From positions 1-18,423 of IMG/VR virus record IMGVR_UViG_2667527959_000011: a stretch of 18,423 nucleotides of DNA; one strand, 5' to 3'. This stretch comes from a virus (Duplodnaviria > Heunggongvirae > Uroviricota > Caudoviricetes). The number at the start of each line of letters is the position of its first letter. The first letter of the stretch is position 1. This document shows positions 1-18,423 of this stretch, one piece after another. Under the pieces are notes generated by a model. That model worked only from the letters and a program-made list of their open reading frames with translations. It ran no database searches and was not told where the DNA came from. A program made the translations under genes and the position numbers.

Positions 1-100
1 AGAAATGAAATGACTGAGTCAGCCGAGAAGAATTTCCCCGCTTATTCGCACCTTCCTTAGGTAAAGTTATTTTTAAGTAATCGAGCAACTTTCAGCCCTC

Positions 101-589: not shown

Positions 590-608
590 TTTTCTTACCC
601 AACAGAAT

Positions 609-625
609 AAATTAATTAGAGCAAT
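609..625 (-). promoter_or_regulatory. C1 repressor operator-like site just upstream of ssb
   Basis: Minus strand reads ATTGCTCTAATTAATTT, 16/17 match to the P1 C1 operator consensus ATTGCTCTAATAAATTT (consensus recalled from the literature). Lies about 20 bp upstream of the ssb GTG. Confidence 0.55.
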
Positions 626-758
626 AATGTATATCTTTGAAACGTGGTTAACAAGTGATTTGCATTATCCTGTGCCTTCTAAAGGGATCGAGTCAGTCGG
701 TAATGGCTGTGAATGGGTGTTTGTCCTGGAGCGTAAAAAATTCGCTTATGAGGTCTTT

Positions 759-1316: not shown

Positions 1317-1563
1317 ACTCCGGCAGCTCCGCCGACTTTCGACAATGAAGTTATCGCTGGCGGCGATAGTTTTCGACTCGATTTTCATGGCGGTATATGT
1401 GCTCAATGAGACGTGGCCACTGGAACCGCTCTTGTATGCTGGGCTTAGGCTGTGCCTGACATTTTTGAGCATGGCTGCAAGATTGATGCAGCAGAAAGAA
1501 ACCGCTTCAGATTGTCCACGCCGCGCGGTGCGCAAATATATGGCACGCAGGCGAAGGCGATAA
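1309..1563 (+). CDS. Hypothetical small membrane protein, possibly holin-like
   Basis: 84-aa ORF whose ATG overlaps the lyz stop (caATGAAtaa). Two hydrophobic stretches and an Arg-rich C-terminus (ARRRRR). An intrinsic terminator follows directly, suggesting co-transcription with lyz. Confidence 0.35.
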   Translation: MNKLRQLRRLSTMKLSLAAIVFDSIFMAVYVLNETWPLEPLLYAGLRLCLTFLSMAARLMQQKETASDCPRRAVRKYMARRRRR

Positions 1564-1576
1564 TAGTTAACGAGAA

Positions 1577-1602
1577 CCCCGGCAGCCGCCGGGGCTATTT
1601 TT
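1577..1602 (+). terminator. Rho-independent terminator after the lyz operon
   Basis: GC-rich hairpin CCCCGGC-agcc-GCCGGGG (1577-1594) followed by ctaTTTTT. Confidence 0.7.
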
Positions 1603-1607
1603 GATGG

Positions 1608-2627
1608 TTATTTAAACGGGTTGATTGAATTATTAAACGTGATGATGCTTGTCTCACGCGGTGCCTTGACGTTAGCCGCTTGCGGAACCTCCTTAATTTT
1701 CTTGGTGACAGGCAAGTTGCGCGCGCCAACTTTGATCAGAGATTCGAAAAGTGTGGCAACGATTTTTGCATCACCAGGTTCTTTGAGGCGGAATGCGTCT
1801 TTTTGGGCGGCGGAGACGAAGATCGGGAGGTTATCCAGTTCGTCTTGCATCGCTGCCAGCACATCATCGCGGATACCCGCTGTTTCCTCCAGCAAAGCAA
1901 TTCGCGCTTCAGCATCTGCGATCTTGGCCATTGCTTCGAGGTGGCGGCCCTGGCTTTCGAGTAGTGCGGTTTCCAGTTCTGCCGTACGCTCTGTCGCCTC
2001 CACCATCATTTCCAGTTCAGCCATTTTGCCATAATGGGATATAACGGCCTGCACTGACTCGTCGGAGTACCCATGCGCCGCCAGGGATTCTGCCAGTAGA
2101 GATTTAGAATCCGCGCTTTCAAACATTCCGGCGCTGGCAGGATGATCCAGACTGATATAGTTCGGCGTTGTCACATAATCCACACCATGGAAGCTGGTGG
2201 TTACAGCGATTTTCCCGGACTCGCGCCCGCCAGTGGCCCAGCTCCAGCCACCAGCACGGCTTTCGATCATCGCGGCGACAATTTTACCCGGCTCTGTGTT
2301 AAGAATTTCCTGTGTATGGGTAACGATGCCGTTGTCGTCAACAGATATAGCCACTGTTCGGCACGCTGGAACATTGTCGATTACGACCGGGCGACCTTCC
2401 ACCATGATTACGCTGGTTTCTGGTACTTCCAGTTTGCCGGTCAGCTGTCGGCGACCGTGACCGTAATAGCCGAAAAGCTCTCCAAGGCGTAAACCTTCCT
2501 GAGTTTCCTTGCTTTCAAGCATGGTCTTAACCGCGCTTAATACATACTGTCGCCCGTTCTGGCGACCTTTTCGAGCATTGCTATAGAGACAAAAGCGGTC
2601 AGTGACCGTTTTCAAAACATCAGTCAT
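1608..2627 (-). CDS. pro: Putative prohead protease / head-processing protein
   Basis: 339-aa ORF with GGAGGG SD 7 nt upstream of the ATG. Assignment is by position relative to prt and darB as in P1; no catalytic motif was verified by eye. Confidence 0.6.
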   Translation of the reverse strand: MTDVLKTVTDRFCLYSNARKGRQNGRQYVLSAVKTMLESKETQEGLRLGELFGYYGHGRRQLTGKLEVPETSVIMVEGRPVVIDNVPACRTVAISVDDNGIVTHTQEILNTEPGKIVAAMIESRAGGWSWATGGRESGKIAVTTSFHGVDYVTTPNYISLDHPASAGMFESADSKSLLAESLAAHGYSDESVQAVISHYGKMAELEMMVEATERTAELETALLESQGRHLEAMAKIADAEARIALLEETAGIRDDVLAAMQDELDNLPIFVSAAQKDAFRLKEPGDAKIVATLFESLIKVGARNLPVTKKIKEVPQAANVKAPRETSIITFNNSINPFK

Positions 2628-2739
2628 TATATTGCCCTCCAGCTACCTTACCTAATGTCTGTTGGTATATTGGCTTTGATAACATTTTCGTCCGTGTATT
2701 CATTTATATACTCATTAGTTTCAATGTATTATATAGAAC

Positions 2740-3872
2740 ATGAAGCGTGCCTATAAATATCGATTCTATCCAACTCCCGAACAAACCGAGCTATTAGCCC
2801 GGACTTTTGGGTGTGTGCGTTTTGTCTATAACAGCCTCCTTCGCTGGCGCACCGATGCGTACTACGCACGCCATGAGAGGGTCGGCTATGCACAAGCCAG
2901 CGCCAAATTAACGGCACTGAAAAAAGAACCAGAATTCGCCTGGCTGAATGACGTTTCCTGCGTCCCCCTCCAGCAGTCTCTGCGCCACCAACAAACGGCT
3001 TTTGCTAACTTTTTCGCCGGGCGTGCTGCATACCCAGTTTTTAAGAGCAAGCGGCATAAACAGGCCGCAGAACTAACTGCCAGCGCATTTAAATACCGTG
3101 ACGGCAAGCTGTGTACATGGCAAAGAGCAAAGAGCCGTTAGATGTTCGCTGGAGCCGTCCGTTGCCGTCTGCTCCATCCACTGTCACTATCACCAGGGAT
3201 GCTGCCGGACGATATTTTGTATCCTGTCTCTGCGAGTTTGAGCCTGTATCACTGCCGATCACCGTTTCCACGGTCGGCATTGATATTGGTTTAAAAGATT
3301 TGTTCGTCACCGATACCGGTTTCAAAACTGGCAATCCTCGACACAACGCTAAATACGCGAAGCGATTAGCAGTGTTACAGCGCAGATTGAGCAAGAAACA
3401 AAAAGGCTCAAAGAACCGCGCCAAAGCACGTTTAAAGGTTGCCCGCCTCCACGCGAGAATAGTCGATTGTCGGATGGATAACCTGCATAAGTTATCCCGC
3501 AAACTGATTAACGAAAACCAAGTTGTTTGCGTCGAATCCCTTAAAGTGAAAAACATGATCCGTAACCCGAAGCTGTCTAAAGCAATAGCTGACGCAGGCT
3601 GGAGCGAACTTGTACGCCAACTCCAGTACAAAGGAGAATGGGGTGGACGTAGCATTGTCGCTATCGACCAGTATTTCCCTTCTTCCAAACGTTGCAGCAG
3701 TTGCGGCTTCACCATGCAAAAAATGCCTCTTAATATTCGTAAATGGCACTGCCCGGAATGTGGCGCAGAGCATGATCGTGATATTAACGCGGCCCGTAAT
3801 ATAAAAGCTGCCGGGCTGGCAGTGTTAGCCCTTGGAGAGTCTGTAATTCCTAAGCCGCTTCATGTGGTTTAG
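2740..3872 (+). pseudogene. tnpB: IS200/IS605-family TnpB (OrfB) RNA-guided nuclease, interrupted by a -1 frameshift near 3102-3141
   Basis: N-terminal fragment (2740..3141) starts MKRAYKYRFYPTPEQ, the typical OrfB N-terminus. C-terminal fragment (3111..3872, frame -1) carries RuvC-I (VGIDIGLKD), RuvC-II (VVCVESLKVKN), a zinc finger (CSSCG...CPECG) and RuvC-III (HDRDINAARNI). No tnpA is adjacent. Confidence 0.8.
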
Positions 3873-3904
3873 GTCGGACTCTGTGAATTGGGAATGTTTG
3901 CCGT

Positions 3905-5635
<1,731 letters not shown>

Positions 5636-5679
5636 TTAATTAGAATAATTCGCATCGTGTTTTAACGGAATTTAACACT

Positions 5680-5689
5680 AGTCACTTGT
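5680..5689 (-). promoter_or_regulatory. Conserved 10-bp motif (ACAAGTGACT on minus strand), candidate late-promoter element upstream of prt
   Basis: Forward AGTCACTTGT is repeated exactly at 15381-15390. In both places the minus strand reads ACAAGTGACT, then 5 bp, then a weak -10-like hexamer (TAAATT or CAGAAT). Confidence 0.3.
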
Positions 5690-5701
5690 TAAGGATTACC
5701 A

Positions 5702-8700
5702 ATGAACAAGCTATCTATGGGGGTGTTTCGCTGTTCAAGTGTCAGCGAAATATTGAAATACATTAGGGCAATAACATCTCACCGAGCGCCGATTAAATAC
5801 GGCGTGGAAAAGGTGGAAGGCAAAAGCTATGACCAACTGCGCCGGGAGGCGAATCAGAAGGCGATAGATTTGCTTAATTCGCTGGTGGACGGCGCGACAC
5901 TGACAGATGAACAGCGCCAGATCCTGGCTGGGTACACCGGTGAAGGCGGCATTGGCGGGTCCGTCTCCGAATATTACACACCAAAGCCGATCGCTGAAGG
6001 TGTCTGGGAGATCATGAAGCTCTACGGCGCGGACGTAGGTAACACTCTGGAACCATCGGCGGGCACCGGCGTTTTTAATGAGACAAAACCGGTTGGTACG
6101 GTGATGACCGCGACTGAGATCAGCAGTGTTTCCGGTCGTATAAACCAGCTGTTACATCCGGAAGACAGCGTACAGATTTCCCCGTTCGAACAACTGGCTG
6201 TAAGCACGCCTAACGATTCATTCGACCATGTTGTGGGTAACGTTCCGTTCGGCGGTCGTGATAACACACGCAACATCGATAAGCCTTACGCAGAAGAAAC
6301 GGATATGGGGTCTTACTTCATGCTCCGCATGCTGGACAAGATAAAGCCAGGCGGATTCATGTGTGTGATTGTGCCGCCGTCCATTGTTTCAGGTTCAAAC
6401 ATGAAGCGGTTGCGTCTGCGCCTATCCCGTAAAGCTGAATTTCTTGGCGCTCACCGCTTGCCTACCGGTACTTTTGACGCAAACGGGACCAGTACGGTCG
6501 TTGACGTGGTGCTGATGCGCAAACATCCGGCGGAGATGGCTGAGAAAATCCCCCTGGTGGATGAAGGCACTCTTGAATCGGCAAATGTGCTTTGGCCAAC
6601 GTTTATTTCTGGCAAGTGGTTTGAAAAGGACGGCCGCCGGTTTGTTCATGGCACCCAGGAGAAGGGATTCCAGGGGCGTATTGAGGTTCGTGCCGACGGG
6701 CAGATTGATAACCAGGCTCTTAAAGCGAAGCTGATTCATCGTTTCGAAAGTCGTATCGACTGGTCTTTGCTCGATATGGCTGAACCGTCACCGACCGCAG
6801 ATGTTGTTGATGAAGGGGAAATGCGCTTGATTAATGGCGTATGGCAAAAATATGCTGGTGGTCGCTGGATTGAAGCTGATGCTGGTAAGGAGCTTAAGAT
6901 TGATGCTGCCAGTTATGGCGCGGATAGCTGGGAGGCTCTTCAGCGTAACCTGACTACAACAGAAGGCCGTCTCGGTATGACATTTACCCAGATGGCAAAT
7001 GTCCGCGATAAGTACACCACATCAATCAGCGACGATATGGTGCAGCTGGTGGACTGGATTAACAGCCAGCCTGAAAAATACCGTGAACGCTTGTATCGTG
7101 GGGCGATGATTGGCCGGATGTTAATTGAATATCAGGATATGAAGGCCGCCGGGCATAGTGCTGAACAAATCGAACAGCAGCGCCTTTCTCTGGTGTCCCG
7201 TTTGCAGGCAGAGATTGACCGTTTTGGTAACCCCGGTCGCGGTCCGATAGCTAAATTATCGGGAAGCGGTGCGCGCGCCTGGTTTGCTTTCCGTGGTGCA
7301 ATTAAGCTGGATGGCACTATTTCTGACGAGCTAACAGGAAAGCTGGTTACGCATGATTCCAGCGCCAGTTATGACTCCACCAGCTATCAGGACACCCTGC
7401 GTTATCTCTATAGCGATCTTACCCGCGATCCAATCCAGCTCGATGATTTCCGCCTTGCGTTTACCGGCGAACTGCCAGCCAGTGATGAAGAGTTGCTTAA
7501 TTTATTGGCCAGCACCCCTGGTATTGCGGTTTCACCGTATGGCGGGATTGTTCCGTTCGCCCGCGCCACCAGCGGCGACATTAACGAGATAGTGGCTCCA
7601 AAACAGGAATTCCTTGCCACACTCCCCGACGGTCCAGTAAAGAACAACGTCCTTAATCAGCTGGCAGCGATCGAAGAGAAGCGCATCAAGACGCCAGCAG
7701 AGAATATCCGCTTTAAGCTCAATAGCCGTTGGTTCGACCGCTCCGTCATTCTGGAGTTTTTGCAGGAAAACGGCTATCCGGATCTGCGCTATGTGCAGTC
7801 AGTGCAGCTGGAAGGCGACGAAATGGTTTCTGACACCTATCACGGTGGTGATGGTCTGTTCGTCGGGCACCGATACGGTGTCGTCCAGCGCAAGGATAAA
7901 GAAACAGGCGAGATCCGCTACGAGTGGGACCGTAAATCAGGTGAAAACGCGACTGGGTTCCCGGCACAGCTGGAAAAGTATCTCAATGGTGCGCGTATCG
8001 GTGGCAAAGATAGCGCGACGGCGAACGGCTACCGCGAGCAGATGGCACTGCTTGAGGACCAGTTCAATAAGTGGATCAAGACGCACGATCGCTACGATGA
8101 GCTGGTTGCCAAATACAACGATGTGTTCAATAGCAATATCCCGTATGAACACTCTGGCGATCCGCTTGTGTTGAAGGGATTAAGCGGTAAGCGCCAGCCA
8201 TTTGATTACCAGAATAGCGAGGTGCGCCGACTGTCCGAAGATGGGCGCGGCATCCTGGGCTTCGGCACCGGGCTGGGTAAAACCACGACCGCGCTGGCGC
8301 TTGAGGCGTTCAACTATGAGAACGGTCGCTCTACCCGTACTGCGTATGTAGTGCCTAAATCAGTGCTGGAAAATTGGTATTACGAAGCAAAAGAATTCCT
8401 GAGTGAAGAGGCATTCAGTAACTACCTGTTCGTCGGTCTTGATGTGCTGATGGATGGCGATCAGATTCGCCAGGTGCCGGTGCTCGATGAGAACGGTAAA
8501 CCTGTTCTTGGTACTGATGGCACTCCAGTTATGCGCGATGCTCTTAAGCTGGCAGATGAAGCCACTATCACGGCGCGGATGAACGCGATCCCGCACTCAA
8601 ATTACCGTGCAGTCGTGTTTACCAAAGAACAATACGCCCGCATTCCGCTACGTGATGACACCGTAGATGAGCATGCACAGGATATGCTTTATGACTTCGT

Positions 8701-11700
8701 TGCCGCCGGGCGCGTAGCCAGTGCAATGGATTCCGATTCCCATCGCAAAGAGGCGGCGCGTCGCCGGGTATTGTCGGAGTATTCAGATACCGGTACCGAA
8801 AAAGCAGAGAAGTATCCGTACTTTGAGGATATGGGCTTCGACAGCGTGATCGCCGACGAAGGCCACAACTACCGCAATAGCTATAAAAATGGTCGCGAAG
8901 CGTCACAGCTGGCCTATCTGCCCACCAGCGCGGTAGCGCAATCGGCGCGAGATATGGCAATCAAAAACGCGTACCTGATGAAAAAGAATGGCGGGCGCGG
9001 ACCGGTTCTCCTGACTGCAACGCCAGTCGTTAACACCCCGATCGATGCATACAACATGCTTTCTCATGTTCTGCCGAAGGAATACTGGCAGAAGATGGGG
9101 ATCTACGGTCCTGATGACTTCGTTAAACTCTTCGGCAAGACCAGGCTGGAAACGGTACAGAAAATCAGCGGTGAAGTTGAAGAAAAAATGGCGCTGGTGG
9201 GCTTTGAAAACCTTGATGCGCTGCGCGGCATATTCCATCGCTGGACAACGCTTAAAACGGCGGAAGACGTTAAGGATACCGTGGAGATCCCGGAGCTTGA
9301 CGAACACCAGCAGGATGCACCACTTACTGAAGAACAACTGGCGGCGTATGAAGAATTACGCCAGCAGGCGGAAGCGGCGGCCAAAGCCAACAATGGCGTA
9401 ACGACCTCGATCGATGAAGACGGAGTGATTGAGCACGAGAAAGCCCGTCCGATCTTCTCAATAATCAGGGATATGGACCGCGTATGTACTGACATGGACC
9501 TGTACTATCGCCGGATCACCTATCGTTTCCTGCCGGAGTACGCCGATGCGGTGCAGCAGCTGGCGGACAGTTTGCCTAAACAAGCCACCAGCGAAGACGA
9601 CGACAGTGATGATTCAATCACGCAGCAATCGCAATACTCCCTGATAGATAAGGGCGAGTTTATTCAGTTGCAGGTTCCGGAAGCGTTCGAGCAGGAAGTG
9701 AATAAGCGCCTGGCCAGGTTTGGCATTGACGAACAGACCGTAACTCACCCCGTTACGCCCAAATACGCGAAGCTGATTGCCACGCTGAAGGAGTTTTTCC
9801 CGGAAGGGAAGCAAATCATCTTCACCGACGAAAAAACGCAGCACCAGAAGCTCAAGCGCATTATCTGCAATGCTCTTAACCTTGAACCTTCAAAGGTAGG
9901 GATCCTGAATGCTCAGACGGTTGCCGAGGCAGGTAAAACCGGTAAGAAACTGAAAGCGGTTAAACCGCCGAAAGAGTTACCGGATGAACCAACAGATGCA
10001 CAGATAGCGAAATACAACGAGCAAATGGCTCTGTATGACGCCTATATCGCGCAGCAAAATGAAATGTCGTTGGGCGGTCTGGAAAAGATTGCAGCCGACT
10101 TCCAGGAGGGCCGGACTCCGATCATCATCTGCAACAAAAAGGCAGAGGTGGGTATCAACCTGCATCGAGGAACGACTGACATCCATCATCTGACGTTGCC
10201 ATGGACACCAGCCAGTATCGCACAGCGTAACGGTCGCGGTGCTCGAGTTGGCTCCAACCGTGCAAGCGTTCGCGTTCACTACTACTGCGGCAAGGGGTCT
10301 TTCGATGAATACCGATTGAAGACGCTGAAGCGTAAAGCAGGCTGGATCTCCGATATCCTCCGTTCAGATAAGTCGGAAATGGAGAACGCCGACGCCAATG
10401 ACATGATCGAAATGCAGATGTATACCGCGAAGGATGACGGCGAACGTCTGGCAATGATGCAGGTTCAAATGGATAAGGCGAAAGCTGCGAAACGCGCTCG
10501 CCAGAAAGAACAGGCTACTATCGACCTTCAGAATTACATCAAGGCGCAGCACGCAGCTGGCGAGGATGTGGAGGTACTTACCGCTGAATTAGAGCGAAGC
10601 AAAGCGGAACTTGAAAAGACCACCGCCGAGGTAGCTAAATTCAAACAGGCGGTAATGGCCAAAGCAGCTGATAACGCAGACTGGAAAGCCCGCTGGGGTA
10701 GCGTCCATCACACAGACCGTACGTTGTTAGCACAGTATCGCGCGTCGTTGAAAAGCGCCATTCAGCGCAAGGCTAATATCTCTCAGGCCATCTCCCGCTA
10801 TGAGAAATTATTGAACCGTACTCAGAAGGCCGCGACGGATATCAAACGCCTGCGCCCGCTGGTGGAGGATGCAATAAATAAAGGCATTCTGGATGTTGAT
10901 CCTGATCTGGTTAACCATGCGAATGAGTTCCTTGTTATCGGCGATCGCTCATGGCGTGTAGGCCAATACTACGATTGTGCCGGTGATATCGTTCGCATTA
11001 AGTCGCTGGACTTCGACAGCCAGCGCGCAGACGTGGAGATCATCTTTACCTTAAGAGGCACCAAATCGGGTAACTGGGATGTGAAGACGCTGGATAAACA
11101 GGTTGATGTAACTCCCGATGAAGATGCTGTTATGCAGAAAATCAGTGGTGGCGTCTCCATCGCCGGGATTAACGACATCATTTCCTGTGACGATTTCTAC
11201 CGTTTCCAGCAGCGCGGCATGATCAAAATCACTGACTCGTACGGCGTTCAGACTACAGAGTCAGGCTATAGCATTGATTTTGTTGGTACCTATACGGACC
11301 CACTGAAGCATGCGGTTTACCCGGATCGCCGTGACGGCGCGCTGAAGTCGTCAATTGCAAAATGGGTGCTTGGTATGATGTCGGAAGGGAATAACCGCCA
11401 GATCCGTTCGGCAGAAACATTCCTGGTTGAATTGTTTGGCTCCAATTATGGCGATGTAATCGCGTCATACGGAGATACGCTATCCCCTGAAGCAATTCAG
11501 GAGAAAATAGCGGATGCGATCGCCAGAATGCCGGAAAAAACAAGCCAGGGGTCTACTCGTAACGGGGATTCTGAACTTGAAGTCACCAATGCCATTTTCG
11601 GTACCAATGAGTTCCGGGCGTCAGATTATGAGATCACCACAGCACAGTTTGGCACCATTGGCATTTACAGCAATAAAGACGAGATCAAGCAGGCAATGGA

Positions 11701-12469
11701 CGCAGCAAGTGCGCGCATTGCAGCAGAACGGAAAGCCAATCTGAATCATGCAGTCGCCGCGCTGACTCAATCGTGGGTAACAGCAATCAGGGAGGCCGCC
11801 ACCACAGGAAAAATCACACCGGCAATTGCGGATGTCGTAAACGACGGCTCTAAATTTATGGATGCCTATAAAATGGATGCGGTGCAGTTGCCATCAGCCT
11901 ATGGCCAACTCAGCTATCGCATGACCTACAACCTGGTATCAATGTTTACTGACCTTGCCATCCTTGGGCTGGTGGACCTTAACGAGGTTACGCCGGAATT
12001 ACTCAGCATGCGCAAGAATCATGTTGAGATATTGCAGAGAATTAACACGGTTCTTGCCGGGCGCACCGATGAAGAGAAACAGGCCGACGCTGATCGGATA
12101 AACCTGGCCCTAGGCAACATCACGGAGGAAGAAATTGCCGCCAGAAACGAGAAACAAGAAGAGTTATCATCAATACAGGGTGATGCCACCAGCATAGCTC
12201 AGTCTCTTGGGCTGAATTATCGCGTATCCACCGCCGACCTGAAGATGATGTACGCACCAAAATTCGCCGCTGGCGAGGTATTTGGGCTTCAGGAAGCCTC
12301 CGGCATGAAAGGGGTTCTTTTCCGTGCGAAAGACGCAATCAAGGCGAAATTCGGCGCTCGCTGGTTGCCAGCGAAGGCGAAGAACAGCGATTTCCCGGGT
12401 AACTGGTGGATTATCGAGACAAAACACAACGTGGCGGACGTTCTGGCCGTCATCCAACAATACGCATAA
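5702..12469 (+). CDS. darB: DarB-like anti-restriction protein (N6-adenine methyltransferase fused to a superfamily-2 helicase)
   Basis: 2255-aa ORF. Methyltransferase motif I LEPSAGTGVF (~6050) and NVPFG (NPPF-like) motif; helicase Walker A GFGTGLGKTTTAL (~8260), DEGH box VIADEGHNY (~8850) and motif VI QRNGRGARVG (~10230). Size and architecture match P1 DarB as I recall it. Confidence 0.88.
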   Translation: MNKLSMGVFRCSSVSEILKYIRAITSHRAPIKYGVEKVEGKSYDQLRREANQKAIDLLNSLVDGATLTDEQRQILAGYTGEGGIGGSVSEYYTPKPIAEGVWEIMKLYGADVGNTLEPSAGTGVFNETKPVGTVMTATEISSVSGRINQLLHPEDSVQISPFEQLAVSTPNDSFDHVVGNVPFGGRDNTRNIDKPYAEETDMGSYFMLRMLDKIKPGGFMCVIVPPSIVSGSNMKRLRLRLSRKAEFLGAHRLPTGTFDANGTSTVVDVVLMRKHPAEMAEKIPLVDEGTLESANVLWPTFISGKWFEKDGRRFVHGTQEKGFQGRIEVRADGQIDNQALKAKLIHRFESRIDWSLLDMAEPSPTADVVDEGEMRLINGVWQKYAGGRWIEADAGKELKIDAASYGADSWEALQRNLTTTEGRLGMTFTQMANVRDKYTTSISDDMVQLVDWINSQPEKYRERLYRGAMIGRMLIEYQDMKAAGHSAEQIEQQRLSLVSRLQAEIDRFGNPGRGPIAKLSGSGARAWFAFRGAIKLDGTISDELTGKLVTHDSSASYDSTSYQDTLRYLYSDLTRDPIQLDDFRLAFTGELPASDEELLNLLASTPGIAVSPYGGIVPFARATSGDINEIVAPKQEFLATLPDGPVKNNVLNQLAAIEEKRIKTPAENIRFKLNSRWFDRSVILEFLQENGYPDLRYVQSVQLEGDEMVSDTYHGGDGLFVGHRYGVVQRKDKETGEIRYEWDRKSGENATGFPAQLEKYLNGARIGGKDSATANGYREQMALLEDQFNKWIKTHDRYDELVAKYNDVFNSNIPYEHSGDPLVLKGLSGKRQPFDYQNSEVRRLSEDGRGILGFGTGLGKTTTALALEAFNYENGRSTRTAYVVPKSVLENWYYEAKEFLSEEAFSNYLFVGLDVLMDGDQIRQVPVLDENGKPVLGTDGTPVMRDALKLADEATITARMNAIPHSNYRAVVFTKEQYARIPLRDDTVDEHAQDMLYDFVAAGRVASAMDSDSHRKEAARRRVLSEYSDTGTEKAEKYPYFEDMGFDSVIADEGHNYRNSYKNGREASQLAYLPTSAVAQSARDMAIKNAYLMKKNGGRGPVLLTATPVVNTPIDAYNMLSHVLPKEYWQKMGIYGPDDFVKLFGKTRLETVQKISGEVEEKMALVGFENLDALRGIFHRWTTLKTAEDVKDTVEIPELDEHQQDAPLTEEQLAAYEELRQQAEAAAKANNGVTTSIDEDGVIEHEKARPIFSIIRDMDRVCTDMDLYYRRITYRFLPEYADAVQQLADSLPKQATSEDDDSDDSITQQSQYSLIDKGEFIQLQVPEAFEQEVNKRLARFGIDEQTVTHPVTPKYAKLIATLKEFFPEGKQIIFTDEKTQHQKLKRIICNALNLEPSKVGILNAQTVAEAGKTGKKLKAVKPPKELPDEPTDAQIAKYNEQMALYDAYIAQQNEMSLGGLEKIAADFQEGRTPIIICNKKAEVGINLHRGTTDIHHLTLPWTPASIAQRNGRGARVGSNRASVRVHYYCGKGSFDEYRLKTLKRKAGWISDILRSDKSEMENADANDMIEMQMYTAKDDGERLAMMQVQMDKAKAAKRARQKEQATIDLQNYIKAQHAAGEDVEVLTAELERSKAELEKTTAEVAKFKQAVMAKAADNADWKARWGSVHHTDRTLLAQYRASLKSAIQRKANISQAISRYEKLLNRTQKAATDIKRLRPLVEDAINKGILDVDPDLVNHANEFLVIGDRSWRVGQYYDCAGDIVRIKSLDFDSQRADVEIIFTLRGTKSGNWDVKTLDKQVDVTPDEDAVMQKISGGVSIAGINDIISCDDFYRFQQRGMIKITDSYGVQTTESGYSIDFVGTYTDPLKHAVYPDRRDGALKSSIAKWVLGMMSEGNNRQIRSAETFLVELFGSNYGDVIASYGDTLSPEAIQEKIADAIARMPEKTSQGSTRNGDSELEVTNAIFGTNEFRASDYEITTAQFGTIGIYSNKDEIKQAMDAASARIAAERKANLNHAVAALTQSWVTAIREAATTGKITPAIADVVNDGSKFMDAYKMDAVQLPSAYGQLSYRMTYNLVSMFTDLAILGLVDLNEVTPELLSMRKNHVEILQRINTVLAGRTDEEKQADADRINLALGNITEEEIAARNEKQEELSSIQGDATSIAQSLGLNYRVSTADLKMMYAPKFAAGEVFGLQEASGMKGVLFRAKDAIKAKFGARWLPAKAKNSDFPGNWWIIETKHNVADVLAVIQQYA

Positions 12470-12502
12470 CAGGAGCGCCCGGTTCGCCGGGCGTCGCATA
12501 AT

Positions 12503-12943
12503 ATGGCCACATTATCTGATACAATAAAACCGAATAAAACATATCTTGAGGCGGTGCTGCGTACGGCGTTGTTAGGAAAGACAGAAGACGAATACGTTGA
12601 TTTCTTCCTGTCAGGGCTACGCGGGCGATTACTGAAAAATCCCCGCCTGTACCGCAGTTATGGCCCATACTGGCCGGAAATTAAAAAATTATTACTGGAG
12701 CGCGGTTATGGTAATTTCGGTCGTCTCGTTGACCGTGACGTTCGCAAAATTTACCGTTATGACCGCCCGGCGCTGACACTCATAGCCGCGACGCTCTACA
12801 GCCAGGAGCGTTTTGATAATGGTCAGATATACTCAGCCTGGCATTTACTGCCAGTGCCTGAAGAAGTTGACGACCAGGACTATGAGTTTGAGTCTTACGA
12901 TTTGGAAGTTGAAGCCTTGGCACAGGCTGGAGAGAAAACTTGA
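12503..12943 (+). CDS. Hypothetical protein, possible Ulx homolog
   Basis: 146-aa ORF immediately downstream of darB; its stop overlaps the start of the next ORF (cTTGA). Assignment by synteny only. Confidence 0.45.
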   Translation: MATLSDTIKPNKTYLEAVLRTALLGKTEDEYVDFFLSGLRGRLLKNPRLYRSYGPYWPEIKKLLLERGYGNFGRLVDRDVRKIYRYDRPALTLIAATLYSQERFDNGQIYSAWHLLPVPEEVDDQDYEFESYDLEVEALAQAGEKT

Positions 12944-13188
12944 AAAAGCGATACTACACAGTAAAGCATGGGACGCTACGAGCATTACAAGAGTTTGCTG
13001 ACAAGCATAACGTTGAGGTGCGCAGGGAAGGGGGAAGTAAAGCTCTGCGTATGTACCGTCCGGATGGGAAATGGCGAACGGTCGTCGATTTCAAAACTAA
13101 CAGCGTTCCCCAGGGCGTCCGTGACCGGGCATTCGAAGAATGGGAGCAGATCATCATAGATAACGCATTGCTCCTGAATGCTGATTAA
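12940..13188 (+). CDS. lxc: Lxc-like small protein (C1 co-repressor)
   Basis: 82-aa ORF with TTG start overlapping the upstream stop and GGAG 8 nt upstream. Size and position match P1 lxc. Confidence 0.5.
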   Translation: MKKRYYTVKHGTLRALQEFADKHNVEVRREGGSKALRMYRPDGKWRTVVDFKTNSVPQGVRDRAFEEWEQIIIDNALLLNAD

Positions 13189-13225
13189 TTTATCGGGCAG
13201 TTTTATCTGCCCGATAAATTTTTAT
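13187..13225. terminator. Hairpin terminator between convergent lxc and the SIR2-like gene
   Basis: Perfect 14-bp inverted repeat AATTTATCGGGCAG (13187-13200) / CTGCCCGATAAATT (13207-13220) with 6-nt loop, then a T-run. Arm 1 overlaps the lxc stop codon. Confidence 0.65.
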
Positions 13226-13234
13226 CGACCACAA

Positions 13235-14542
13235 TTACACTATATTCTTAACTATAAGGTTGGCGTCCTTCAAGGTGCCTAATGTTTCAATGTGGTTTTT
13301 TATCATTAATCTATTTGAGGCAATTATTGCAGGCCATCGTGTTTCCCAAGCTCTGTAAGCATACCAAGAAACTCCCCAATTCCTTTCTTTACTCATATGA
13401 CCCATCGAGTATTCAACTGCGTCTAAATATGTTTTTTCATACTTAGTATTGCTAACCTCTATGATGCTTCCAAAATATATAAGCCATTTTGCCAACTGTT
13501 CATATTGCTCCCACGCTCCGTTATTCCTTGTTAACTTTCTCTTTTTTTCTATTATCCTTTCGAAAAGAGAAACGACTTTATCATCATTCCAATCTAAACC
13601 TTCCGATATAATTGATGATATAATTTGATAAAATGAATCCTCTAATTTAAGATATTCATTTTTATAAGTATAAGCCCCCGAAACAACTTTTCTGATATTT
13701 TCGCGCGCTCTTTCAATGATGTCTTTAATGAGAGATATCTTATAACTTAATCGACTAAAGAAACAATCTATTTCTGTATTGTCAATTACCCTTATACCAA
13801 AGCAATAGAAGTAATAATCCTTCATATCTTGACTTACTTTGTTGCGAGATATCAAAAAGATATTAGAGCACAGGGCATTATTTTTCGAAAATTTTTTATA
13901 GTCATTTATAATTGCTTTAAGATTTGTGTCGCTTAAAGAATACCCTAATATCGCAACTGTATTTTCATGCAGCATCGTACTAAGTTTTCGTGAAAAATAA
14001 GTATCGGAATTTATAAATCTGAAGTAATCATCTGAAGTGACAATCATATTTTTTGGCGAATCAATAGAGCCATGAACATGATATATTTTCACCTTGGATG
14101 GATACTTTGGAATTGGCAGGCCGGGCGTGATAGACTGTACACTTTCATCTCCAACCAAGCATTCAGCCAACTTGTCATAATTTGTTGTAATGACACGGAA
14201 TGAGTTTTTTTGGAAAAAATCTTTTATATTTGATATGTCTTCTCCAAGTTGAATTGGAGATATGATGTCAACAATTTCATCATAAATCGACTTACCCTCA
14301 ATATTGAGCTTCAAAGATAGTATTTGTGCGGCTTCTTCAAGACTCAGTGCTGGTGGTTTATCATCAGGGAATAACGTGTCTTCCAACTTTTTGGCATTGT
14401 GAACTTTGCTGCAAACTTTTTTTAATAGTTCCTTCCACGTTGGAGCTTCACCGTTCGAGACTGCCTTTGAAAAGCCAGTCCCGGTAAATAGACAAAGCCT
14501 GCTTGTAGCGGCAGCGTATGCTAACTCAACATATTCGCTCAT
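13235..14542 (-). CDS. SIR2-like (SIR2_2/DUF4020-type) protein, candidate NAD+-depleting defence effector
   Basis: 435-aa ORF with GGAG SD 8 nt upstream of the ATG. Motifs: LFTGTGFS...APTWKELL near the N-terminus, VITTNYDKL, KIYHVHGS, MIVTSDDY and VAILGYSLSD. No CxxC...CxxC zinc ribbon. About 180 C-terminal residues have no recognisable motif. Gene is markedly AT-rich compared with its flanks. Confidence 0.8.
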   Translation of the reverse strand: MSEYVELAYAAATSRLCLFTGTGFSKAVSNGEAPTWKELLKKVCSKVHNAKKLEDTLFPDDKPPALSLEEAAQILSLKLNIEGKSIYDEIVDIISPIQLGEDISNIKDFFQKNSFRVITTNYDKLAECLVGDESVQSITPGLPIPKYPSKVKIYHVHGSIDSPKNMIVTSDDYFRFINSDTYFSRKLSTMLHENTVAILGYSLSDTNLKAIINDYKKFSKNNALCSNIFLISRNKVSQDMKDYYFYCFGIRVIDNTEIDCFFSRLSYKISLIKDIIERARENIRKVVSGAYTYKNEYLKLEDSFYQIISSIISEGLDWNDDKVVSLFERIIEKKRKLTRNNGAWEQYEQLAKWLIYFGSIIEVSNTKYEKTYLDAVEYSMGHMSKERNWGVSWYAYRAWETRWPAIIASNRLMIKNHIETLGTLKDANLIVKNIV

Positions 14543-14597
14543 TACTTACTCCATTTACTTATAGTTCTATGGAGAAGTATACCCTAATGCATTGACG

Positions 14598-14625
14598 TTT
14601 ATAGATAATTTCCTTTTCCAGTTAA
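14598..14625 (-). promoter_or_regulatory. Candidate sigma70 promoter for the SIR2-like gene
   Basis: On the minus strand: TTAACT, 16-bp spacer, TATAAA. The -10 overlaps the stop codon of the upstream mat-like gene. Confidence 0.3.
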
Positions 14626-15240
14626 CTCCCCTTTAGGCACCCGTTTTTGTGCCAGTGTTTGGGTTCCGCGAATTATGTTAATCAGAGGGCTTAGTAACGA
14701 TGATTCCTGGCGGGCATCAACTTCTCCTGCCATTGCCCTAATGTAGTCGGCGCTTGCAACGTTGTTATATTCCGTTGCGAAGCAGCATAACAACGTCAGA
14801 ACGTGCTCTGTCGTTATTTCGCTCCAGTTGATGTTGAAAAATTCATCGCCTTTTTTGTCATGTTCGGAATCGAAGATGCTTTGGTGAAGGATGTATTTGC
14901 CGGATTCCTTGCGCGGTAACTTGATCGCTTTCTGGCGTTCCAATTCCTTGTAAATCTGCATCGCTTCAATCAGTACCGGTCTGCCGTTCATGAAGGGATC
15001 ACGCAACCTTACACGCTGGCCAACTCGACCGGTAATAAAGCTGTTTTCCTCTTCCACCAGCACGATAAAACCCTTTTCCTCTTTTTCTCGCAATTCGCGC
15101 AGCAGCTGGAGTTCCATATCGCGGCGGCGTTCAGGGTAGCTGGTCCGCTCAGCCATTATCAGCTCATTGTTGATCCATGCGGCAGTCATTGACGCCGGTT
15201 TGCCGACGCTCATCGAAACAACGCATATTTTCTTATCCAT
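14599..15240 (-). CDS. Hypothetical protein, possible Mat homolog
   Basis: 213 aa from the ATG at 15240. The ORF track extends it to a GTG at 15267, which would place a terminator-like hairpin inside the coding region. Assignment by position between ref and the res-mod slot. Confidence 0.45.
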   Translation of the reverse strand: MDKKICVVSMSVGKPASMTAAWINNELIMAERTSYPERRRDMELQLLRELREKEEKGFIVLVEEENSFITGRVGQRVRLRDPFMNGRPVLIEAMQIYKELERQKAIKLPRKESGKYILHQSIFDSEHDKKGDEFFNINWSEITTEHVLTLLCCFATEYNNVASADYIRAMAGEVDARQESSLLSPLINIIRGTQTLAQKRVPKGELTGKGNYL

Positions 15241-15250
15241 AGCGCCCCTA

Positions 15251-15278
15251 CAAAAAAGAAAAGCCACCAGCGGCGGCT
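15251..15278 (-). terminator. Terminator-like hairpin plus U-tract in the leader of the mat-like gene
   Basis: Minus strand reads AGCCGCC-gct-GGUGGCU (one G-U pair) followed by UUUUCUUUUUU, ending about 10 nt before the ATG at 15240. Confidence 0.4.
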
Positions 15279-15380
15279 TAGCAATACAACTGAAGGTAGC
15301 GCCCGGTACTCAGACTGTGCCGTCCATGGAATATTTGAAAAGGGATCCATCCGTACCGGGCGTGTGATGATTCTGACTGA

Positions 15381-15390
15381 AGTCACTTGT
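15381..15390 (-). promoter_or_regulatory. Second copy of the 10-bp ACAAGTGACT motif, upstream of the mat-like gene
   Basis: Exact repeat of the 5680-5689 motif. An upstream TTGACA (minus strand) is present and a 10-bp inverted repeat (15300-15309 / 15353-15362) lies downstream in the leader. Confidence 0.3.
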
Positions 15391-15428
15391 CAGTTGTCAA
15401 TCATTTATCATTAAAAATAATATATTTA

Positions 15429-15991
15429 TTAGTGCATGATGTTTGCCATCTCATAGGCGTCAGCCAGTAACTCCATCTCTGACTTGTTCAGTAGGGTGAA
15501 TTCTTTCTTGCCTCCAACCACACCATCGGCATGAACAGGGACCAGCCAGGGGTATTTTGCTCTTACTTCAGTCGGTGCTGCATGCTGGTGGTGCCATCTC
15601 TACAAAGTGGCAATTGCTTTTTATGACAACCCGGCGCGGTACGACCGGCGATATGGTGCAGAGACACCTCATTAGATATTACTCCATGCATATAGCAGGC
15701 AATGCAGGGGAGAGTGCCAAGAGCATTGGCGATGCGCCGTTCCTCCGCCGTTGGTGTTCTCCCCTTCAAGCCACGAGATTTTATTTTTACCGCGCTTTTC
15801 CGCGTTTTGCTGGCTGGTGGGCGCTCTTTCTGTTTAGCGATACGGCGGTCGATAGTATCCCGCATTTTCTGATATTGAGATTCTCGCCAGACCGGATCAG
15901 CCAACTTCTCCCGTTGCCGAGCGATCGCTCGTTCTCTGGCTGCCTTCTGCCACTTGCGGCACTGTTCAATTTTTTGTTCGATTGTTTTCAT
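15429..15991 (-). pseudogene. ref: Ref (HNH-type recombination enhancement endonuclease) with a frameshift
   Basis: N-terminal 131 codons (MKTIEQKIEQ...LPLCR) are in one frame; the remaining 55 codons (WHHQHAAPTEV...ANIMH, stop at 15429-15431) are open in the -1 frame. The break falls in the minus-strand run TGTAGAGATGG (forward ~15597-15603). Removing two bases restores a 186-aa product. Confidence 0.8.
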
Positions 15992-15997
15992 ATGGTC

Positions 15998-16024
15998 AAA
16001 AAAAAGGCGGCCTAATAGCCGCCT
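15998..16024 (-). terminator. Intrinsic terminator 6 nt upstream of the ref start codon
   Basis: Minus strand reads AGGCGGC-uauuag-GCCGCCU followed by seven U (forward A-run 15998-16004), then gacc and the ATG. Confidence 0.6.
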
Positions 16025-16083
16025 ATGATGTCAAGGAGTGAAGTAATGGCAACGTCTTCGTAGTTGACAAAAACTGCGACTCA

Positions 16084-16107
16084 ATTATAGCAACCAATTA
16101 GAGCAAT
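16084..16107 (-). promoter_or_regulatory. C1 operator(s) overlapping the presumptive ref promoter
   Basis: Minus strand reads ATTGCTCTAATTGGTTGCTATAATTGA. The first 11 bp match the operator consensus, a second TTGCTATAAT half-site overlaps, and a perfect TATAAT -10 is at forward 16084-16089. Confidence 0.55.
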
Positions 16108-16212
16108 TAAAGTTGTTTATTTATCGCGAATCACATTTTTTCACTTCAGTACCTGTGTGCTATACTCCTTCTTGATTGATTGGATGCGGAATACAAACCC
16201 GCTCTTTTGTGC

Positions 16213-16244
16213 AGCCTGGCTCCTTGCCAGGCTTTTTTTTATTT
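16213..16244 (+). terminator. Plus-strand intrinsic terminator overlapping the cra stop codon
   Basis: AGCCTGGC-tcctt-GCCAGGCT followed by a run of T ending at 16240. On the minus strand no U-tract follows, so it is directional. Confidence 0.6.
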
Positions 16245-16550
16245 CATCATGGAAGCTGTTAACGCTTTGGACCTTGCTGAACTGATTGAGAGGGCTTTGT
16301 CAACGTGCCCCAAAAATTCGCCAAACTCAGACATCACTTTAGCAAAACCGCGCCGTGCTTCTTCCTCGGTGGCATTCATCACGAAATGTTCAGCACCACG
16401 CATACTTTTGACAGGGAACGCAACGGATATTGAATCAATATCAGGCATTCTATCGCTCAGCTTTACAGTGACAATGACGGCTGGCGACTGAATATTAGTG
16501 CTTACAGACAGCACTACATATTTTCCGTCGATGTTGAAATCCTTTCGCAT
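16239..16550 (-). CDS. Hypothetical protein downstream of cre, possible Cra
   Basis: 103-aa ORF of balanced composition between cre and ref. The overlapping plus-strand ORF (16180..16491) runs through the terminator hairpin and is considered spurious. Confidence 0.45.
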   Translation of the reverse strand: MRKDFNIDGKYVVLSVSTNIQSPAVIVTVKLSDRMPDIDSISVAFPVKSMRGAEHFVMNATEEEARRGFAKVMSEFGEFLGHVDKALSISSARSKALTASMMK

Positions 16551-16566
16551 ATGTCACCATAAATAT

Positions 16567-16583
16567 CAAAGAATTAGAGCAAT
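16567..16583 (-). promoter_or_regulatory. C1 operator-like site between cre and the downstream ORF
   Basis: Minus strand reads ATTGCTCTAATTCTTTG, 13/17 overall with the first 11 bp matching the consensus. Confidence 0.5.
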
Positions 16584-16600
16584 CATTTACGCGTTAATGG

Positions 16601-17632
16601 CTAATCGCCATCTTCCAGCAGGCGCACCATTGCCCCTGTTTCACTATCCAGGTTACGGATATAGTTCATGACAATATTTACGTTGGTCCAGCCACCAGCT
16701 TGCATGATCTCCGGTATTGAAACTCCGGCACGGGCCATATCTCGCGCGGCTCCGACACGGGCACTGTGTCCAGACCAGGCCAGGTACCTCTGGCCAGAGT
16801 CATCCTTAGCCCCGTAAATCAATCGGTGAGTTGCTTCAAAAATCCCTTCCAGGGCGCGAGTTGATAGCTGGCTGGTGGGTGATGGCGAGGCAACACCATT
16901 TTTTCTGACCCGGCAAAACAAGTAGTTATTCGGATCATCAGCCACACCAGAGACAGAAATCCATCGCTCGACCAGTTTAGTTACCCCCAGGCTAAGTGCC
17001 TTCTCTACACCCGCGGTACTAACCAGCGTTTTCGTTCTGCCAATATGGATTAACATTCTCCCACCGTCTGTACGTGAGATATCTTTAACCCTGATCCTGG
17101 CAATTTCGGCTATACGTAACAGGGTGTTATAAGCGATCCCCAGAAATGCCAGATTACGTATGTCCTGGCAGCGATCGCTATTTTCCATGAGTGAACGAAC
17201 CTGGTCGAAATCAGTGCGTTCGAACGCCAATGCCTGTTTTGCACGTTCACCGGCATCAACGTTTTCTTTTCGAATCCGCCGCATGACCAGTGAAACAGCA
17301 TTGCTGTCACTTGGTCGTGGCAGCCCGGACCGACGATGAAGCATGTTTAGCTGGCCCAAATGTTGCTGGATAGTTTTTACTGCCAGACCGCGCGCCTGAA
17401 GATATAGAAGATAATCGCGAACATCTTCAGGTTTTGCGGGAAACCATTTCCGGTTATTCAACTTGCACCATGCCGCCCATGACCGGCAAACGGACAGAAG
17501 CATTTTCCAGGTATGCTCAGAAAACGCCTGGCGATCCCTGAACATGTCCATCAGGTTCTTGCGAACCTCATCACTCGTTGCATCGACCGGCAATGCAGGC
17601 AAATTTTGGTGTACGGTCAGTAAATTGGACAT
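16601..17632 (-). CDS. cre: Cre tyrosine site-specific recombinase
   Basis: 343-aa protein starting MSNLLTVHQNLPALPVDATSDEVRKNLMDMFRDRQAFSEHTWK and ending MVRLLEDGD. Near-identical to Cre as I remember it, with about three substitutions. Confidence 0.98.
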   Translation of the reverse strand: MSNLLTVHQNLPALPVDATSDEVRKNLMDMFRDRQAFSEHTWKMLLSVCRSWAAWCKLNNRKWFPAKPEDVRDYLLYLQARGLAVKTIQQHLGQLNMLHRRSGLPRPSDSNAVSLVMRRIRKENVDAGERAKQALAFERTDFDQVRSLMENSDRCQDIRNLAFLGIAYNTLLRIAEIARIRVKDISRTDGGRMLIHIGRTKTLVSTAGVEKALSLGVTKLVERWISVSGVADDPNNYLFCRVRKNGVASPSPTSQLSTRALEGIFEATHRLIYGAKDDSGQRYLAWSGHSARVGAARDMARAGVSIPEIMQAGGWTNVNIVMNYIRNLDSETGAMVRLLEDGD

Positions 17633-17639
17633 TTAACAC

Positions 17640-17861
17640 TCAGATAATGGTTTTAAGTAAAGTGTACAGGATCGGCTCTGCCTTTACCTGTTTATGGTTC
17701 TCGTCATAGAAACGCCAACGACCGCGACTGCGTTCTATCTTTTCTTCACCGCGCGATAATGACAGTTGACAACTATCACGATCAAACCCTTTTGCCCGCC
17801 AGTAACCACGATTTTTCTCAAGCTCAAGATGAGTGGACACTTTAGCAGCTGAATATCCCAT
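17640..17861 (-). CDS. Hypothetical 73-aa upstream ORF in the cre leader
   Basis: AGGTG SD 4 nt upstream of the ATG. Its stop (TGA, 17640-17642) lies 7 nt before the cre ATG, which has no strong SD of its own. Confidence 0.35.
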   Translation of the reverse strand: MGYSAAKVSTHLELEKNRGYWRAKGFDRDSCQLSLSRGEEKIERSRGRWRFYDENHKQVKAEPILYTLLKTII

Positions 17862-17957
17862 TTTTCACCTCTGATTGATTGGTGGTGCTAAGTGCGCTAC
17901 GCGAAATCTGTAGGACTGACACCGCCAATTTTTCACAGATTTTACGTAGCGCAACCT

Positions 17958-17979
17958 TGATCAAATGATCAAGTGATCA
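17958..17979. promoter_or_regulatory. Triple TGATCA (Dam GATC) cluster in the cre promoter region
   Basis: Three TGATCA hexamers at 8-bp spacing (GATC at 17959, 17967, 17975), about 330 bp upstream of cre. Confidence 0.5.
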
Positions 17980-18050
17980 CTATTTGACCTGCCAAGGTAT
18001 TGAACTGTATGGATTTACAGGTAAATTGATCATATTCAATAACCCTTAAT

Positions 18051-18084
18051 ATAACTTCGTATAATGTATGCTATACGAAGTTAT
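18051..18084 (+). other. loxP: loxP recombination site
   Basis: Exact ATAACTTCGTATA-ATGTATGC-TATACGAAGTTAT: 13-bp inverted arms around the canonical 8-bp spacer. Confidence 0.98.
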
Positions 18085-18127
18085 TAGGTCTGAAGAGGAG
18101 TTTACGTCCAGCTGCGCATAAAAATCA

Positions 18128-18144
18128 AGAATTATTAGAGCAAT
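18128..18144 (-). promoter_or_regulatory. C1 operator-like site
   Basis: Minus strand reads ATTGCTCTAATAATTCT (14/17). The forward strand here also partly matches the consensus, so the site is partly palindromic. Confidence 0.5.
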
Positions 18145-18204
18145 AAATTTTGAGAGAAAAATCCCACTCCACCAGCCAAAAACTGGATTGTTTTTCATAG
18201 TTGT

Positions 18205-18231
18205 TTGACAATTGCTCTAATAAATTATAGT
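18205..18231 (+). promoter_or_regulatory. Candidate promoter with an embedded C1 operator
   Basis: TTGACA (18205-18210) directly followed by ATTGCTCTAATAAATTA (16/17) and a TATAGT -10-like hexamer at 18226-18231. The 15-bp spacer is short for sigma70. Confidence 0.5.
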
Positions 18232-18423
18232 TTTGCCGCCGTTACGTAATACGACTTTGGATTCACTATTTAATGTGTCTTCAGCGTTGTAGAGCGGCTC
18301 AGAAGGAAATGAGCAAACAGGGAAACCTTATACAACGGCATTACAGCTATGCATTGCTCATCTTAGGAAGGTGCGAATAAGCAGGTCATTTCTTCCCAAG
18401 CTGACTCGCTGATTAAAATTTCG

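Follow-up and report, generated by a model that had tools for sequence, protein, structure and literature searches.

The proteins DSR2, ThsA, KomC and Avs5 deplete NAD+ and abort infection. Resistance genes are spread by P1-like phage-plasmids, which are frequent in E. coli and Salmonella of clinical and livestock origin. The subject of this analysis is an AT-rich island in a P1-like phage-plasmid, represented by IMG/VR record IMGVR_UViG_2667527959_000011 (Caudoviricetes), of which positions 1 to 18,423 were studied (the window, 18,423 nt in all). The island lies between the genes lxc and mat, and holds a single open reading frame (ORF), on the minus strand, plus a hairpin of its own. The ORF encodes a 435-aa protein with a SIR2_2 domain. 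The island is a one-gene cassette, made up of the hairpin, the SIR2 gene and a short leader, and it occupies a slot that is already known; its cargo is probably an NAD+-depleting abortive-infection protein.

In P1 the slot corresponds to the region RD-1 (P1 positions 3,469-9,749, bounded by the mat and lxc stop codons), and variable regions have been described at loci of low G+C (Venturini et al. 2019, PMC6906374). A 2022 survey likewise counts 'region 1 (res-mod)' as one of eight variable regions and notes its low G+C (PMC9603915). The island described here has the same properties: it is located between the lxc and mat stop codons, its content varies between genomes, and its G+C is low. The hot-spot behaviour of the locus and its low G+C are already known from the literature; what is new here is a left breakpoint defined to the base, hairpins that are specific to each occupant, a graded breakpoint inside mat, and a mosaic within the SIR2 gene. 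A term search of PMC6906374 and PMC9603915 found no mention of SIR2. The literature searched contains no description of this SIR2 protein in P1-like elements, Vassallo 2022 and Rousset 2022 mentioning other SIR2 proteins only. One occupant is CapRel(SJ46), a validated single-protein antiphage system whose C-terminal domain senses a phage major capsid protein (Zhang et al. 2022, PMC9712102); direct sensing of a capsid was demonstrated with this protein.

The genes of the window run in the order darB, ulx, lxc, island, mat, ref, in the opposite orientation to the P1 reference, and over the flanks (darB-ulx-lxc on one side, mat-ref on the other) identity to 19 P1-like phages is about 97%. The first-pass annotation had proposed that the island was a cassette swapped in at a variable locus. 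This is supported, because the flanks are conserved and the contents differ among P1-like genomes; and in the alignment to P1 that it had called for, the gene is absent from the slot in P1. Measured from the lxc stop to the mat stop, the P1 slot is 6281 bp long and contains res-mod (EcoP1I, a type III restriction-modification (R-M) system) together with IS5, and the slot of P7 also holds a type III R-M system. The slot of RCS47 is almost empty, with 39 bp that include only a small hairpin of its own. In SJ46 it carries a RelA/SpoT gene (1271 bp) whose product is CapRel(SJ46), matching PDB 7ZTB over all 373 residues with E 1.4e-250; in JL22 a PIN-domain gene (1054 bp); in MH422554 a DUF2971 gene (1190 bp); and in OP279344 and Ro157c2 a pair of HTH and EAL genes (1717-1755 bp). 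PADLOC assigns the SJ46 protein to the candidate PDC-S33 and the JL22 protein partly to PDC-S34, and gives no match for the HTH and EAL pair. The two genes of this pair are on opposite strands (OP279344.1, locus L006, 1790-3506; NC_050153.1, locus L007, 1790-3544), and a record titled 'P1 isolate del res del mod' carries the pair as well. Because P1 and P7 have type III R-M and SJ46 has the validated CapRel(SJ46) at this position, the slot can be regarded as a defence slot.

An AT-rich island between flanks of about 50% GC had been noticed at first reading, and the calculation bears this out: GC is 0.346 at window positions 13226-14625, compared to 0.504 in the adjoining 1400 nt on the left and 0.491 on the right. 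This is the lowest GC of any 1400-nt segment of the 18,423 nt. The dip is about 8 standard deviations (SD) from the baseline, which was taken from the 1400-nt segments that do not overlap the island (mean 0.508, SD 0.020, minimum 0.439). On a sliding-window plot, GC drops from about 0.50 to 0.28-0.37 across roughly 13150-14500. The suggested check of codon bias gave the same picture, with GC at third codon positions (GC3) of 0.323 in the SIR2 gene and 0.476-0.577 in darB, ulx, lxc, mat and ref. There is a second stretch of low GC (0.34-0.39) at the end of the window, 17800-18423, beyond cre (16601-17632, minus strand).

The left breakpoint of the island is the lxc stop codon (TAA, 13186-13188), and all P1-like genomes compared diverge from the next base onwards. 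The phage alignments end at query position 789, equivalent to window position 13188, and restart inside mat, and the AT-rich segment is found in 0/19 records. The variable segment that forms the cargo cassette, in the RD-1/res-mod slot of P1, occupies 13189-14598 (1410 bp, GC 0.348). Its left flank is the conserved lxc gene (C1 modulator, 12940-13188, plus strand), identified as an ORF and by the lxc annotation in matching P1-like records, and its right flank is mat (maturation control, 14599-15267, minus strand), which has a mosaic 3' end, the remainder being conserved backbone. The stop codon of mat is at 14599-14601, as had been noted. The first-pass annotation had described both boundaries as sharp. 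On the left this is exact. On the right it holds for base composition, which changes abruptly at roughly 14600-14660, and does not hold for sequence, since the mosaic extends into mat: from 14599 to about 14660-14750 other P1-like genomes are 57-80% identical to the window, and a level of at least 97% is reached only from about 14800. The right breakpoint is therefore graded, lying 60-150 nt inside mat, with a crossover point that varies by genome, and the last 20-50 codons of mat differ among P1-like genomes. CP057733, the only further record with the SIR2 gene that was inspected, agrees with the window in its mat 3' end (97% and 87% in the first two 30-nt bins), which suggests that the C-terminus of Mat may travel with the cargo.

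The perfect hairpin that had been reported at 13187-13225 is real. It has 14-nt arms at 13187-13200 and 13207-13220 separated by a 6-nt loop, and with its TTTTTAT tail on the plus strand it extends over 13187-13226; the predicted folding energy is -23.1 kcal/mol with a z score of -7.2, and no shuffled sequence folds equally well. The minus-strand version folds at -22.2, without a U-tract. The hairpin is likely to terminate lxc transcription on the plus strand and, on the minus strand, to stop or stabilise the convergent transcript of the SIR2 gene. It had been taken as a landmark that bounds the island from outside, which is incorrect, as it forms part of the variable segment. Within the first 40 nt 3' of the lxc stop, a different GC-rich stem-loop is found in every occupant, and likewise in RCS47 with its near-empty site, which implies that the hairpin belongs to the cassette and not to the backbone. 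It seems that a terminator directly after the lxc stop is required regardless of the cargo.

Apart from this hairpin, the repeat search found no boundary repeats or insertion sequence (IS) ends at the cassette, and there is no transposase, integrase or recombinase ORF and no attC-like site within it. An IS, transposon or integron cassette was rejected as a description, given that there are no terminal repeats or target duplication and no such ORF, and that the junctions differ between occupants. An Rfam scan of 12900-15400 produced one hit at chance level (E 0.98), with no retron-like or ToxI-like RNA. The lack of IS ends, repeats and integrase leaves homologous recombination in the conserved flanks as the likely route by which cassettes would be exchanged.

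The ulx-lxc backbone is present in 699 PLSDB plasmids, and the SIR2 cassette matches 125 of these (about 18%), at least 41 of them at an identity of at least 99% and 83 at 80-90%. The commonest occupant counted is the HTH and EAL pair, with 149 plasmids; then come SIR2 (125), P1-type res (108, some of them outside P1 backbones), DUF2971 (90), the PIN-domain gene (23) and CapRel (22). Among 5,426 complete E. coli genomes the island matches 134, almost always on plasmids. A tblastn search with the SIR2 protein against 50,697 phage records returned remote hits only, at less than 30% identity.

One record of the 80-90% group was inspected, the IncY plasmid CP057733, in which the SIR2 gene is at the same site. 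Window positions 13195-14594 were compared with 4000-5410 of this record (locus L008). The flanks are 97-100% identical, and so nearly are the first 400 nt of the SIR2 gene (14195-14594, minus strand; 98.5-99.5%), whereas the remaining 1000 nt and the hairpin are only 78-88% identical. This drop in identity at about 14195 implies a crossover inside the cargo gene, at around residue 116, just before the catalytic TTNYD motif. It looks like the trace of a second exchange, in which one crossover would have fallen within the cargo gene and the other at lxc. The amino-acid differences between the alleles begin at residue 102, and 48 of the 61 lie within residues 261-435; the SIR2 domain has a dN/dS of 0.07 and a dS of 0.33, the C-terminal domain a dN/dS of 0.20 and a dS of 0.90. 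Other P1-linked alleles (P0002-P0004) have the same gradient.

The cargo gene is located at 13235-14542 on the minus strand (ATG at 14540-14542, stop codon at 13235-13237), and in plasmid records its product is called 'SIR2 family protein'. The protein is predicted to consist of two domains. The N-terminal one (residues 1-255; 13778-14542, minus strand) is a Rossmann/SIR2 domain of the NADase type, in which the Pfam family SIR2_2 (PF13289) matches residues 117-252 with E 1.1e-23 and 84.3 bits, against a cut-off of 24.5. The best sequence matches in the PDB are to DSR2 (E 4.5e-10, residues 14-282), KomC and ThsA. Asn121 (in VITTNYD; codon 14180-14182, minus strand) and His157 (in VHGS; codon 14072-14074, minus strand) align with N133 and H171 of DSR2, also against the H171A mutant chains. 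The catalytic residues of ThsA are N112 and H152. In the cargo family Asn121 and His157, and the nucleotide-binding loop GTGFS at residues 21-25, are invariant in 36 homologs, and no CxxC zinc module is present in the protein. The AlphaFold2 model (pLDDT 86.2, pTM 0.79) has a Rossmann/SIR2 fold for residues 1-255 followed by an all-helical region at 258-431, and the top Foldseek match is the SIR2 domain of DSR2, with a TM score of 0.72. Taken from sequence and model, the N-terminal domain is an antiphage-type SIR2 domain with predicted NADase activity.

The C-terminal domain (residues 256-435; 13238-13777, minus strand) is an all-helical α-solenoid and a putative sensor or regulatory domain. 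It belongs to no Pfam or PADLOC family, and it resembles only generic solenoids, with no specific likeness to DSR2. When a profile of this domain was searched against 1.84 billion representative proteins, 96 hits were obtained, and the full-length ones were all 421-480 aa long with the domain at about 255-435, the exception being one weak hit of 820 aa. The hits therefore have essentially the same architecture, implying that the domain is private to this family, and the search rules out that it is a module common to other effectors. It is also the part that varies most between alleles, both allelic and family-wide variation being concentrated in residues 256-435; this is suggestive of a sensor, though suggestive only.

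A total of 684 homologs were found, and among the matches listed almost all are about 434 aa long and 52-62% identical to the cargo protein. They come from Xenorhabdus, Pantoea, Klebsiella, Vibrio, Halomonas, Pseudoalteromonas, Marinobacter, Pseudomonas, Paracidovorax and Rhizobium. The surroundings of the gene were inspected in eight organisms, and no partner gene is conserved beside it. On the E. coli chromosome (loci L009-L012, 5001-6311) the homolog marks one end of a prophage: the integrase gene immediately precedes it, and ccm/narP-like core genes adjoin it. In Pantoea it stands beside an HD/HD_assoc gene (HD/dGTPase-like), in Halomonas within an island of HNH, DUF4145, HsdR-N, DUF87 and STAND-TPR genes, in Marinobacter adjoining type I R-M and GmrSD and next to phage-like genes, and in Stutzerimonas between a NERD-UvrD helicase gene and a DUF2971 gene; in Pseudoalteromonas, Paracidovorax and Rhizobium it has no recognisable companion. 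In eight of nine hosts the GC of the homolog is 0.10-0.22 below that of its surroundings, from which it follows that the gene is AT-rich mobile cargo there too, and not on P1 alone. It is worth adding that the E. coli chromosomal homolog is 59% identical, with a GC of 0.33 against 0.49 in its flanks, and that the prophage carries YfdP and DUF2303 genes. It can also be noted that the DUF2971 gene is directly downstream of the Stutzerimonas homolog (locus L020, 8407-9237) and that a DUF2971 gene is an occupant of the P1 slot (locus L005, 1842-2882); this recurrence may be due to chance, or defence islands may commonly carry both genes.

The most likely function of the cargo, which we infer by analogy with the SIR2 proteins already described, is a single-protein, NAD+-depleting abortive-infection defence. 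The proposed sequence of events is as follows. P1-like elements would swap cassettes through their conserved flanks, the right-hand crossover falling at varying positions within mat and at times within the cargo gene. In the lysogen the SIR2 protein would be kept inactive by autoinhibition. On infection by a competing phage, the C-terminal solenoid would sense a phage-derived cue and the SIR2 domain would be switched on, possibly through oligomerisation as in its relatives. The active domain would then hydrolyse NAD+, so that the infected cell could no longer support phage growth, and this abortive infection would shield the host population of the P1-like plasmid.

Several observations weigh against this proposal. 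In the literature searched there is no report of NADase activity or of phage protection for this family. The cargo protein qualifies as none of the named systems, the PADLOC and NCBIfam matches being confined to the SIR2 domain. The C-terminal domain is well conserved, with W344, W353, W393, W399 and W403 invariant and dN/dS well below 1, and this makes a conserved ligand, either a small molecule or a host factor, a live alternative to a phage protein as the trigger. Finally, a consensus scan, which covered promoters and terminators and which missed the hairpin at 13187-13226, found no minus-strand sigma-70 promoter in the interval that separates the SIR2 gene from mat; transcription of the gene could be read-through that starts at the mat promoters, which in P1 are C1-controlled and late.

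As regards expression, the SIR2 start codon is separated from the mat stop by a spacer of 56 bp (14543-14598, minus strand), which contains a good Shine-Dalgarno sequence, GGAG at 14549-14552, 6 nt ahead of the ATG. A relaxed promoter scan gave weak sites only, such as TCTATA-18-TATACT ending at 14576, and there is no terminator between mat and the SIR2 gene. With no convincing promoter and no terminator after mat, transcription may depend either on read-through from the mat promoters or on a weak promoter of its own, located in the spacer or towards the 3' end of mat. Expression of CapRel(SJ46) in a promoter-less vector was driven by 100-200 bp of its native upstream DNA (PMC9712102), and by analogy with what these construct data suggest for SJ46, the promoter of the SIR2 cargo may lie within the mat 3' end.

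Other explanations of the island can be weighed against the abortive-infection cassette. One is that its low GC is mere local compositional noise in a native backbone gene, with no cassette at all. Several AT-rich stretches do exist in P1 genomes, for example that at 17800-18423 of the window, and nothing further speaks for it; a deviation of about 8 SD, the absence of the segment from 19/19 P1-like phages in the collection, the nearly empty site of RCS47, and the unrelated genes that fill the slot in other genomes leave it almost no probability at all. The phage comparison, the junction alignments and the GC statistics together refute it. A second explanation accepts the cassette and regards the protein as an orphan effector, which would respond to a diffusible second messenger from another source (nucleotide or ADPR-derived, as in the case of ThsA and KomC) and plug into a host-encoded or phage-triggered pathway. 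We regard this as unlikely, because no TIR, KomA/B or cyclase gene is conserved beside the homologs from the eight organisms, the C-terminal solenoid is unlike SLOG or any other known ligand-binding domain, and CapRel, the other validated occupant of the slot, is self-contained.

It is also conceivable that the protein plays no part in defence and is a true sirtuin-type deacylase or an ADP-ribosyltransferase, whose modification of plasmid or host proteins would help the lysogen or P1 development. RefSeq/PGAP does name it 'SIR2 family NAD-dependent protein deacylase', deacylases too have the SIR2 fold and the catalytic His, and some SIR2 proteins (SirTM) ADP-ribosylate proteins. The fold is however nearer to the defence NADases than to the deacetylase sirtuins, with no zinc-ribbon module, and we consider the deacylase explanation quite improbable. 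Marginally less probable again is a module that serves the plasmid itself, through addiction and post-segregational killing or through superinfection exclusion against other P1-like elements, rather than broad defence. Such behaviour has a precedent in this very slot, as res-mod acts as an addiction module in P1 (PMC6906374) and is known to contribute to the stability of the plasmid. An NADase is potentially toxic, and the SIR2 gene lies directly downstream of mat with no terminator between. Yet the cassette contains no antitoxin or immunity partner, chromosomal homologs are found outside plasmids in defence islands, and single-chain autoinhibited effectors such as CapRel share the slot. The abortive-infection cassette remains the preferred explanation.

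A wider proposal can be put forward more tentatively, and we would rate its chances as slightly below even. According to this, the proteins of about 434 aa that join a SIR2 domain to a private solenoid would be an autonomous immune family, a kind of miniature DSR; the allele groups would read different phage cues by means of swapped C-terminal halves; and the res-mod slot would be a general defence hot-spot, in which the uncharacterised HTH and EAL pair, DUF2971 gene and PIN-domain gene would be defence systems as well. The result is unsurprising in itself, as the behaviour of the locus and SIR2-based defence are both established. Its interest is that the SIR2 gene is among the commonest occupants of the slot that houses the P1 restriction system and CapRel(SJ46), and that a compact family with no partner gene, outside the named systems, provides a small and readily cloned candidate with which to ask how a minimal SIR2 NADase is restrained and then activated. 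The remaining occupants of the slot are marked out as candidates for defence.

The remaining genes of the flanks are darB at 5702-12469 and ulx at 12503-12943, both on the plus strand, and ref at 15563-15991 on the minus strand, an ORF that matches the Pfam family RecA_dep_nuc. The ref gene carries a 2-bp insertion at about 15600-15601, reading TTTGTAGAGATGG where P1 and RCS47 have TTTGTAGATGG. The insertion causes a frameshift and shortens the ORF to 142 aa rather than 186 aa, which indicates either a pseudogene or a sequencing error.

A comparison with the named SIR2 systems places the protein outside all of them. For DSR1 and DSR2 the NCBIfam scores are 26.2 and 22.5 bits against a cut-off of 1400, matching the SIR2 core only, and the protein has 435 aa compared to about 1000-1260 aa. 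Thoeris is rejected because the protein has no C-terminal SLOG domain as in ThsA, the PADLOC ThsA profile matching the SIR2 core only, and because there is no TIR/ThsB gene in the window or beside the homologs from the eight organisms. The same places contain no KomA or KomB, and the C-terminal domain is unrelated to that of KomC, which disposes of Kongming. There is no STAND NTPase domain, as would be expected of Avs5, and the adjacent HerA ATPase gene required for SIR2-HerA (Nezha) is not found. The PADLOC profile for LmuA-SIR2 of Lamassu matched only over 14-238 of 433, with the C-terminus unmatched and no SMC gene in the cassette. The best PADLOC match is to PDC-S25 (E 1.4e-26), likewise a single-gene SIR2 candidate, although only 127-289 of the 517 profile positions, the SIR2 core, are covered. 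On present sequence comparisons, the cargo is best described as a new candidate member of the SIR2 NADases that act in defence, one whose C-terminal domain is private to its family.

Two of the closest described proteins can be compared further. DSR2 of Bacillus subtilis is, like the cargo, the product of a single gene and has an N-terminal SIR2 domain followed by helical solenoid domains; it differs in its size of about 1000 aa and in its MID and CTD domains, which bind the phage tail tube. CapRel(SJ46) is unrelated in its fold, being a toxSAS that pyrophosphorylates tRNA. Its cassette has a near-consensus promoter, TTAACA-16-TATAAT, straddling the mat stop, where the SIR2 cassette has weak candidates only. 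Nevertheless its gene fills the corresponding slot and points the same way as the SIR2 gene, lying downstream of mat and converging on lxc, with its own hairpin after it, and both are single proteins in which an N-terminal enzymatic effector is followed by a C-terminal regulatory or sensor domain, putative in the case of the SIR2 cargo.

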